DNA from: Escherichia phage LMessi | Sequence record: PP925823.1 | Length of the DNA: 37,205 bases | Reading direction: 5' to 3' (one strand) | Part shown: in pieces, positions 2,338 to 3,036 of the stretch | Layout of the letters: each line of letters begins with the position of its first letter | Numbering within the stretch: the stretch's first letter is position 1 | Position numbers and translations under genes: made by a program | The notes under the pieces: model-generated | The model's input: only the letters and a program-made list of their open reading frames with translations | Databases searched by the model: none | Told to the model about the DNA's origin: nothing

Positions 2338-2763
2338 TCACAGGTACTGATCCAGTGGAAGCTGCAGCGCCTGAGCGATTTTCTTCAGCTGTTTCTCTTC
2401 TTCTTCACCGATACCGTCGTTGTCAGCTACATCGAGACACAGGCAAAGAACATCAACAGCGTCATTTGTACCCGCAACATCAGCCAGTTCGCGCAGCGCC
2501 TGAGCGTTAGCAGAACGCGGTGAAGCTTCGTAACGAGCACGAATATTGCTACTCATCTGTGCGATCTCACCGGCGAACGGCGCGAAGGCAGGCAGTGCCG
2601 AAATAGTTTTTTCCAGCGTGGCGATTTCTTTCGCGTCGCAGGTACCGTCGGCATACGCAATGGAGTAAGCGCCCCATACAGTCGCCTCAACCGCATCGCG
2701 GTTTTCCATTTTCTTAACTTCAGTAACGGCTTTACGTGCTTTCTTTTTGAAGATACCGAACAT
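2338..2763 (-). CDS. TerB-like (tellurite-resistance TerB fold) protein, cargo gene
   Basis: 141 aa with two helical repeats built around acidic DG motifs (AYADGTCDAKEIATLEK; DVADNDGIGEEEEKQL), matching the TerB domain signature; lies between the Q-like gene plus terminator and the holin. Confidence 0.45.
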   Translation of the reverse strand: MFGIFKKKARKAVTEVKKMENRDAVEATVWGAYSIAYADGTCDAKEIATLEKTISALPAFAPFAGEIAQMSSNIRARYEASPRSANAQALRELADVAGTNDAVDVLCLCLDVADNDGIGEEEEKQLKKIAQALQLPLDQYL

Positions 2764-2906
2764 AGTGACTTTCCTTTTAGCGGGTGAGCCAGCGCTCAGG
2801 AATGATCAGCCCACAGAGACAGTCACACCGACCGTTCCCTATGGCTCACCCCTGAAAGGCTCTGTGGTTGAATTGCGCCGAGCGTGGCGCGAAGAATTGC
2901 AGGCAC

Positions 2907-2932
2907 AAAAAAACCCGCGCCGAGGCGGGTTT
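2907..2932 (-). terminator. rho-independent terminator, tR'-like (candidate target of Q antitermination)
   Basis: On the minus strand: GC hairpin CCCGC-loop-GCGGG followed by a T7 run; about 40 nt downstream of a TTGACT/TATGCT promoter-like pair. Confidence 0.55.
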
Positions 2933-2965
2933 GATGTCGTGTAGGCGTAATATCCCACGATGGAA

Positions 2966-2995
2966 AGCATACAGGACAGTTTTATGCAAAGTCAA
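2966..2995 (-). promoter_or_regulatory. candidate late promoter (pR'-like)
   Basis: Minus-strand TTGACT (2990-2995) and TATGCT (2966-2971) separated by 18 nt, directly downstream of the Q-like gene and upstream of the terminator. Confidence 0.3.
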
Positions 2996-3036
2996 CACTA
3001 ACGTGCAAAAAAGTGTCGCTATTTGCTCCGATCATA

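Follow-up and report, generated by a model that had tools for sequence, protein, structure and literature searches.

A predicted pseudoknotted leader RNA ahead of the tciAB cargo genes in the late control region of Escherichia phage LMessi

Escherichia phage LMessi (sequence record PP925823.1), whose 37,205-nucleotide (nt) stretch of DNA is called the window throughout this study, is a lambda-like temperate siphophage written opposite to the lambda map. Its nearest records are the Escherichia phages CharmingMan and Fraca, together with mEp and HK tail modules, and an integrase is annotated in the Fraca stretch that matches the window. All genes of the first 6 kb lie on the minus strand, as do all features of the interval studied here (2338-3036), which runs from the late antiterminator gene Q down through tciA, a gene for a TerB-family protein that is followed by tciB and the holins. 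A gap of 273 nt separates Q from tciA, and it holds a promoter-like pair, an intrinsic terminator and a 131-nt leader predicted to be a structured RNA. The features at the centre of the argument are the following:

3037-3819, minus strand: late antiterminator Q of the lambda-Q family, 260 amino acids (Pfam, PHROG and PDB matches)
2966-2995, minus strand: pR'-like sigma-70 promoter, -35 TTGACT (2995-2990), 18-nt spacer, -10 TATGCT (2971-2966) (consensus scan)
2954-2962, minus strand: candidate sigma-dependent pause element, CATCGT then GGG (by-eye comparison with lambda)
2904-2932, minus strand: tR'-like intrinsic terminator, AAACCCGC-ctcggc-GCGGGTTT then T7 (terminator scan)
2891-2761, minus strand: predicted structured leader RNA, 131 nt, ending at the tciA AUG (covariance models R1 and R2, pair counts)
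2890-2886 / 2879-2875, minus strand: hairpin hp1 of the leader
2867-2860 / 2818-2811, minus strand: pseudoknot A, the strand just 5' of helix B with the terminal loop of helix C
2884-2880 / 2797-2793, minus strand: contact K, the hp1 loop with the internal loop between helices C and B
2859-2842 / 2791-2773, minus strand: helix B and its extension
2839-2830 / 2807-2798, minus strand: helix C, inside helix B
2338-2763, minus strand: tciA, 141-amino-acid TerB-family protein with six helices in its model (Pfam, PHROG, profile and fold searches)
2186-2341, minus strand: tciB, 51-amino-acid DUF3927 membrane protein (PF13064, E 2e-15; PHROG 1470 'TciB-like')

The TciA of phage Evi is 43% identical to that of the window, yet the 130 nt before its start codon are 89% identical in DNA, and we therefore analysed the structure of this leader. 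A consensus computed with RNAalifold on a plain MAFFT alignment was discarded, as divergent copies were misaligned, and was replaced by a hand-derived structure, covariance-model alignments and explicit pair counts. Covariance model R1 was built from 18 copies with nested helices only, model R2 was run as well, and covariation was counted on a broad alignment of 82 distinct copies. In this alignment 95.0% of the leader cells were in standard pairs versus 83.0% in column shuffles, with none of 500 shuffles reaching 95.0%; across the alignments made, the values were 94.8 to 95.0% paired versus 83 to 87% shuffled, and sliding the 3' partners by 1 to 3 columns gave 28 to 45%. Compensatory changes were found at 32 of the 37 leader pairs, versus a mean of 16.8 in shuffles. 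The nested helices had been fitted by the alignment, so that these counts lean toward the structure, and contact K, which is absent from the search model and was not used in the alignment, is thus the cleaner test. It was 95.8% paired and covaried at six pairs out of six (e.g., TCGCAC/GUGCGA, TCGCAT/AUGCGA, TCGTAC/GUACGA, TCTCAC/GUGAGA, and CGCTC/GAGCG). On inspection, helix A covaries between subtypes as well (CCACAGAG/CUCUGUGG, CCGCAGA/UCUGCGG, GAAAGU/ACUUUC, UCGAGAG/CUCUCGG, CCAAGAA/UUCUUGG, and CGAUAA/UUAUCG); A lies outside the 82-copy pair count, and its own-versus-cross comparison is weak (mean longest helix of 6.0 versus 5.1). The copies vary by 1 to 2 nt in length with the pairs kept.

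In the extension of helix B, CCUUU pairs with the AAAGG of the Shine-Dalgarno region (2776-2772), and the Shine-Dalgarno sequence is paired in the minimum-free-energy fold as well. No match was obtained in Rfam 15 at gathering thresholds over the whole window, and a search of 2100-3100 at E values up to 10 returned only sub-threshold Phe/Trp-leader and isrK hits, which reflect the terminator. Moreover, no description of this RNA came up in literature searches on DUF3927 and on lambdoid morons, late operons and pseudoknots. On its covariation, we read the leader as a real, knotted RNA fold that includes the ribosome-binding site and is new to Rfam.

A coding reading of the leader was ruled out, since copy lengths differ by non-multiples of 3 with the pairing kept. 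The open reading frames (ORFs) at 2839-2970 and 2846-2998 on the minus strand and at 2747-2944 on the plus strand are likewise not genes, as they span the terminator and the leader, the copies of which vary in length as just described; such an intergenic ORF is labelled 'hypothetical protein' in phage Fostie. In the Evi copy (L011, 2868-3003) the 5' strand of helix B is replaced by an eleven-G run (CAGGGGGGGGGGGAGCC). One K pair is broken as well, since the hp1 loop is of one subtype and its K partner of another; this suggests a recombinant leader or an assembly error.

The leader precedes tciA in about three quarters of the loci according to R1. With a gene panel that is incomplete, 73 of 76 leader-bearing tciA loci had lysis genes downstream or, no more than 3 kb upstream, a Q-like gene (both in 52 of the 76), and the same panel found a Q-like gene or lysis genes at 0 of 26 leaderless tciA loci, P1-like contexts included. 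A pattern scan of IMG/VR recovered at least 120 stretches with the motif; among the matches listed, the gene after the motif is tciA in about a fifth, and the others belong to at least 30 unrelated families (e.g., GT2-like, HNH, Rha/antirepressor-like, and many unknown proteins). A hairpin with a T-run lies no more than ~40 nt upstream in 111 of 147 unique leader instances. Two or more copies are present on some contigs, at times in tandem ~200 nt apart, each before a different ORF (contigs L133, L137, and L210; also L114, L116, L144, L145, and L151). The window itself bears a second copy ahead of another gene:

36989-37102, minus strand: second, divergent leader copy, ending at the AUG of a 485-amino-acid ORF (R1 40.7 bits, E 4e-8; R2 71.3 bits, E 3e-14)
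35534-36991, minus strand: GT2-like ORF, 485 amino acids (weak GT2 glycosyltransferase matches)

If the genome is assumed to be circularised, this GT2-like ORF lies between the lysis genes and the HNH/terminase genes. Of 5426 complete E. coli genomes, 219 carry the second-type copy, including laboratory strains with a prophage in which the copy matches that of phi80; it is present as well in the phages phi80, HK639, mEp043, mEp213, mEp237, mEp390, Fraca, and FSL SP-016, mostly unannotated in the records. In the E. coli laboratory-strain chromosome NZ_CP174268 (L234, 3501-3610), a type-2 leader that lies in a prophage and matches the phi80 copy precedes a 242-amino-acid hypothetical gene just before the small terminase subunit. 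The motif was not found with model R2 in lambda, in P1, or in the Q-to-lysis stretches of Fraca, AsXd-1, and SaltyDalty. A leader specific to tciA was rejected, as the motif tracks the Q/late-operon context and precedes many other genes: it belongs to the late-operon cargo context, not to TerB.

Upstream of the leader, the promoter-like pair and the strong intrinsic terminator that a sequence-only reading of this DNA had placed between a Q-like gene and the holin are indeed found there on the minus strand, in a conserved position. The promoter agrees with the consensus at 9 of 12 positions and its spacer holds ATAAAA (2985-2980). Its TTGACT is the -35 hexamer of lambda pR' and lies 42 nt past the Q stop codon, compared with 44 nt in lambda; compared by eye, the spacers of the window and of lambda are both A-rich and both contain ATAAAA. 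The pause-like element reads CATCGT-GGG here and AACGAT-GGG in lambda, 23 nt from ATAAAA in both (again by eye), and a putative Q-binding element is suggested solely by the ATAAAA at this same 23-nt distance from the pause-like hexamer. Q and the promoter are 95 to 98% identical in Fraca, AsXd-1, SaltyDalty, and CharmingMan, with homology breaking off at ~2965, at the predicted start site. Past this point the relatives diverge, yet each keeps a NANNNT-GG(G/A) element (GATTAT-GGA and AATCGT-GGA at the pause position) and a terminator 35 to 50 nt on. The terminator of the window has an 8-bp stem (2932-2911) with 5 G-C pairs and a T7 run ending at 2904, and it is the first minus-strand site in the scan list; its position is conserved in the relatives and the stem sequences differ. 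The terminated RNA is predicted to be ~56 nt long and to fold into a 5' hairpin and the terminator hairpin (-19.3 kcal/mol in the minimum-free-energy fold). Lambda 6S RNA and the StxS RNA of Stx phages are the known counterparts of such a short terminated RNA. StxS is a functional small RNA that is bound by and dependent on Hfq, and pR'-type promoters are constitutive in lysogens (PMC7547250). The consensus scan found no promoter-like site between the terminator and tciA, and by analogy with lambda a Q-dependent late expression of tciA would follow naturally.

The Q protein matches Pfam Antiterm PF03589 (E 5e-53) and PHROG 127, as well as the lambda Q structures 7UBM (E 2.8e-35) and 4MO1 (E 1e-24), so that the antitermination unit includes a homologue of lambda Q. 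Relative to lambda Q it carries an internal insertion (approximately amino acids 116-205) with four CXXCXGXG-type motifs, for which the Pfam DnaJ_CXXCXGXG match stays below threshold (E 0.002), and its similarity to lambda Q falls into two blocks (amino acids 1-122 and 169-245).

Downstream of the leader, the TerB-domain protein named by the sequence-only reading was confirmed by hidden Markov model searches. TciA scores 29.1 bits against Pfam TerB PF05099 (gathering threshold 24.4; E 1.4e-6), with only amino acids 12-57 aligned, and its match to PHROG 632 'tellurite resistance' spans the entire protein (E 3e-64). A profile of eight TciA-family members retrieves KP-TerB (2JXU, E 5.3e-7), residues 13-135 aligning on 19-144; a single-sequence PDB search with TciA did not find 2JXU, and the family profile was needed. 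The AlphaFold model (predicted local distance difference test score of 84) gives TerB-like structures, 2H5N and 2OU3, as its fold matches. The gathering score, the near-full-length homology to a solved TerB and the all-alpha TerB-like fold thus place TciA in the TerB family. An EF-hand reading of TciA was rejected: the centrin/EF-hand hits are weak (E 0.07-0.2), the profile leads to KP-TerB, and the fold is TerB-like. These hits came from two conserved 'DG...E' stretches (amino acids 37-46, YADGTCDAKE, and 114-123, DNDGIGEEEE), which may be a cation-binding site of TerB-type proteins.

TciA is 84% identical to P1 TciA and is followed by the small DUF3927 protein TciB, which is the P1-type tciAB arrangement. 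The GTG start of tciB overlaps the tciA TGA stop by 4 nt (GTGA), and of 102 loci gathered from collections of viruses and genomes, 99 have a TciB-like ORF next to tciA. The TciB sequence has two hydrophobic segments, by which it is expected to be inserted in the membrane, TciA being expected to be soluble. No tciC was found between tciB and the holin, where the one frame translated, over 2047-2185, is not open, and a TciC match turned up solely in a P1-like locus.

The tciAB pair is already known as a P1-type pair, is annotated in GenBank phages and is mentioned in the prophage literature. Between Q and the holin, Fostie (97% identical DNA) and CharmingMan annotate a 'tellurite resistance protein' and a 'TciB-like protein'; annotation and order in the E. 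coli UMNK88 prophage are the same as in Fostie, and a published study mentions TerB in Klebsiella prophages (PMC7371120). Homologues of TerB were found in 96 phage records, some of them of Erwinia jumbo, Pseudomonas, and Vibrio phages. Among these records are Salmonella and Escherichia phages of ~70 kb, which we take to be N4-like.

The cassette behaves as a mobile module. Megablast breakpoints delimit three modules, namely, Q with the promoter (2965-3819), the cargo (2146-2918), and lysis (up to 2120), and the cargo module is 92% identical to Klebsiella phages that bear a different Q. The slot is polymorphic: in Fraca, AsXd-1, and SaltyDalty, different content stands behind the same Q module. 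The cassette shares with morons its presence or absence among related phages; it lacks their own promoter upstream and own terminator downstream, and has a terminator upstream instead. No anomaly in G+C content or composition was found at the cassette. In JLK-2012, from an O55:H7 strain, the order is Q, three transfer RNA (tRNA) genes, tciA, tciB, yjhS/nanS-p, and S, and in phage Evi it is Q, tRNAs, tciA, tciB, and S. The place of tciAB in JLK-2012 is that of stxAB in Stx phages. TciA is accessory cargo, flanked by a lambda-type Q/pR'/tR' unit on one side and by the holins on the other. The sequence-only reading had this architecture right, and its comparison of the slot with the one in which Stx-type phages carry their toxin holds, as JLK-2012 has tciAB where stxAB lies, a correspondence already visible in public annotation. 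It overlooked the tciB partner and the 131-nt leader, and the gene it singled out is not novel. The TerB cargo is ordinary and of low novelty, and the leader RNA is the feature worth carrying forward.

We propose a model in which RNA polymerase would start at the promoter 42 nt past Q, constitutively if the lambda homology holds. Without Q it would stop ~56 nt on at the terminator and release a short 6S/StxS-like RNA. Q, as a homologue of lambda Q, is expected to load at the promoter-proximal region, and the Q-modified polymerase would then pass the terminator and transcribe tciA-tciB, the lysis genes (holins, endolysin, and spanins), and after them the morphogenesis genes. The transcript between the terminator and tciA would fold so that the long helix takes up the Shine-Dalgarno sequence, with two tertiary pairings to lock this helix, and the leader would hold tciA translation off, or at a fixed level, until the extension of helix B opens. 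What opens it might be cleavage of the long helix by RNase III, or an effector, whether a protein or a small molecule; simple kinetic insulation of a mobile cassette is a further candidate. Since the tciB start overlaps the tciA stop, coupled translation of tciB is probable. Because the leader pairs with the Shine-Dalgarno sequence, Q-driven transcription may not suffice for expression, and the translation of tciA would be gated after transcription, the sequestration being a prediction of the folded model. More broadly, the leader could represent an undescribed, widespread class of double-pseudoknotted RNA that marks cargo in the Q-dependent late operons of enterobacterial lambdoid phages and gates its translation, a proposal on which we stand evenly balanced. 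The signal for such a class may be a ligand, a protein, processing by RNase III, or the condition of the infected cell; alternatively, the class may insulate mobile cassettes for predictable expression.

As for the proteins, TerB has been reported to associate with the inner membrane, ter locus phenotypes include phage inhibition and resistance to pore-forming colicins, and TerB domains are present in the defence systems Shango and Bunzi, according to the literature. Because of these reports, and of the inferred lytic expression just before the holins, we favour a role at the membrane: TciA and TciB could act as a pair at the inner membrane, keeping it energised, or closed to colicins or superinfecting phages, until the holin fires. 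We advance this role tentatively, as a possibility that is rather doubtful. A lytic-phase role fits because P1 tciAB lies downstream of the C1-controlled Pban and upstream of ban, and because TerB homologues occur in Erwinia jumbo records and in records with names that we take as N4-like.

Several observations weigh against this account of the interval. A second promoter candidate, TTGAGA-17-TATGAT at 3059-3031, overlaps the Q stop codon, and promoter-like matches are no more frequent than by chance over 6 kb (4 seen versus 5.3 expected in shuffles), so that the case for a real late promoter is comparative. Between the pause-like hexamer and the -10 hexamer there are 3 nt here and 6 nt in lambda, and the pause geometry of lambda is therefore not simply transferable. 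No terC, terD, terE, or terZ was found among the genes scanned (375-4160 and 32222-36991, the stretch 4161-32221 lying outside the scan). No PADLOC or NCBIfam model matches TciA or TciB, and no defence or counter-defence match was obtained. Moreover, P1 tciA, tciB, and tciC were non-essential for plaque formation in a genome-wide CRISPR interference screen (PMC10695390).

In place of a late role, tciAB could be a lysogenic-conversion cassette, expressed from the prophage through a leaky tR' or an unrecognised promoter and giving the host resistance to tellurite, colicins, or phages. The names and phenotypes of the ter locus in the literature point this way, as do the mobile behaviour of the cassette and the constitutive activity of pR'-type promoters in lysogens, from which some read-through is possible (PMC7547250). 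We nevertheless consider it unlikely: there is no promoter-like site between the terminator and tciA, a terminator lies no more than ~40 nt upstream in 111 of 147 leader instances, and the leader pairs with the Shine-Dalgarno sequence. Furthermore, the tci genes of P1 are downstream of C1-controlled promoters, TerB homologues occur in phage records whose names point to virulent phages, and terC, terD, and terZ were not found among the genes scanned (375-4160 and 32222-36991).

The reported presence of TerB domains in Shango and Bunzi could also be turned around, with TciA as a counter-defence decoy whose phage-borne TerB domain blunts TerB-based surveillance in these systems or the phage inhibition of Ter; the spread of TerB homologues across phages of varied size and host (Erwinia jumbo, Pseudomonas, and Vibrio) is in keeping with it. 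TciA shows no similarity to the PADLOC models of Shango and Bunzi, however, and its conserved partner TciB has no counterpart in them, which makes a decoy quite unlikely in our view.

The 131-nt stretch might in turn be mainly a module boundary at the DNA level, a homology patch for cassette recombination rather than a functional RNA, since it coincides with mosaic joints, is followed by at least 30 unrelated genes in its various copies, and retains 83 to 89% DNA identity between cassettes with TciA only 43% identical. The compensatory changes at 32 of 37 pairs, including those of a tertiary contact unused for the alignment, speak against this, as do the fixed strand and spacing to the start codon and the pairing kept across lengths that differ by non-multiples of 3. 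We judge a mainly DNA-level role very unlikely, the DNA-boundary and RNA roles of the stretch being compatible and not mutually exclusive. Lastly, that the terminator merely ends the Q early operon and the promoter match is a chance one, as a scan no better than its shuffled expectation would allow, is most improbable given the clear lambda-Q homologue, the lambda-like -35 hexamer and distance to the Q stop codon, the joint movement of Q and promoter in a single module, with homology that breaks off at the predicted start site, and the terminator kept 35 to 50 nt downstream in each relative.

Our full best explanation, of which the gated translation and the membrane role are parts, is that the interval probably holds the switch for the late genes of a lambda-like temperate phage, with a mobile accessory cassette of two genes behind it. 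As one more copy of a known cassette, tciAB shows the Stx slot to be a general docking site for late cargo. The leader outweighs the TerB cargo in interest: it is ~130 nt long, strongly covarying, with two predicted tertiary pairings, absent from Rfam, and present in classic phages (the model phage phi80, HK639, and the mEp series), and in every case it stands immediately ahead of a gene of the late transcript. Should it gate translation, late cargo would have a checkpoint besides Q antitermination, which would bear on the control of toxins and other cargo in this slot, and the leader would be a natural part for insulating gene expression.

Beyond the cassette, the window carries the lysis module and the terminase:

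2125-2137, minus strand: short G+C hairpin where the cargo cassette (homology over 2146-2918) meets the lysis module (homology as far as 2120)
1691-2077, minus strand: holin 1, Phage_holin_8 (Pfam and PHROG)
1423-1704, minus strand: holin 2 (Pfam and PHROG)
794-1423, minus strand: GH19 endolysin (Pfam and PHROG)
517-861 and 375-596, minus strand: spanins (Pfam and PHROG)
32222-33736: terminase

The mosaic breakpoints (~2965, 2918, 2146, and 2120) fall at functional edges, namely, the predicted start, the inside of the tR' hairpin, and the flanks of the 2125-2137 hairpin. In CharmingMan (L003, 2545-3776) a 1.3-kb insertion with an HNH endonuclease and a hypothetical gene separates Q/tR' from tciA, and it opens with its own terminator and a weak third leader copy (R2 20.5 bits, E 0.008). 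E. coli FAM21845 was rejected as an empty-slot comparator, its gene order being different. A tRNA scan found no tRNA gene in the window. Asn and Thr tRNA genes are annotated just upstream of tciA in P1 (L009) and JLK-2012 (L010), and tRNA-like sequences were seen by eye at this place in Evi (L011) and Klebsiella phage 5 LV-2017 (L004). A long inverted repeat (ACAACAGG...GCTCTTTCCGTTGTG), also seen by eye, lies upstream of the tciA leader in the Klebsiella phage (L004, ~3350-3500), in P1 (L009, ~1790-1900), and also in the lambda late leader (L008, ~985-1080), and it may mark a conserved site at which late transcripts are processed. DNA of tciA appears in records titled Pseudomonas lundensis (94% identity), Bacillota metagenome-assembled genome (89%), and Kocuria sabuli (97%) (L094, L098, and L113); contamination or mis-binning is the likely cause in these unrelated taxa, one record being a 700-bp scaffold.

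One known system close to this one is the lambda pR'/6S RNA/tR' unit, with which the window shares a homologous Q, the same -35, the A-rich spacer motif, a pause-like NANNNT-GGG element that is in register by eye, and a short terminated leader, predicted at ~56 nt here compared with 194 nt in lambda and 258 nt in a Stx phage. Unlike lambda Q, its homologue in the window has an additional Cys-rich insertion of ~50 amino acids. As in the late region of Stx phages, the cargo has the Q-controlled promoter/terminator ahead of it and the holin behind it. JLK-2012, with a TciA 43% identical, has the same leader RNA and carries tciAB in exactly the stxAB position; in contrast to both, the window has no tRNA genes, nanS-p, or toxin, and its Q belongs to the lambda-Q family, whereas that of JLK-2012 has 162 amino acids. 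In P1, the C1-controlled Pban promoters precede tciAB, tRNA genes lie beside it, and tciC and ban follow. P1 resembles the window in the DUF3927 TciB directly after TciA, with the function of its tci genes assigned by homology only; it has no leader motif, whereas the window has no tciC and carries tciAB in the Q-to-holin slot. The TerB of terZABCDEF (KP-TerB) shares with TciA profile-level homology, the all-helical fold, and the two 'DG...E'-type motifs; the similarity is low, and TciA is partnered by a 51-amino-acid membrane protein, without terC, terD, or terZ.

For the leader itself, the S15 and T4 gene 32 pseudoknots and translational riboswitches offer a parallel, as they have a compact pseudoknotted fold including the ribosome-binding site, such as we predict here. 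In contrast to these translation-control leaders, it has no Rfam match and is common to many unrelated downstream genes, which argues against autoregulation by the encoded protein. The IsrK example of Gifsy-1 indicates that a long antiterminated phage transcript can stay translationally silent until it is unlocked.

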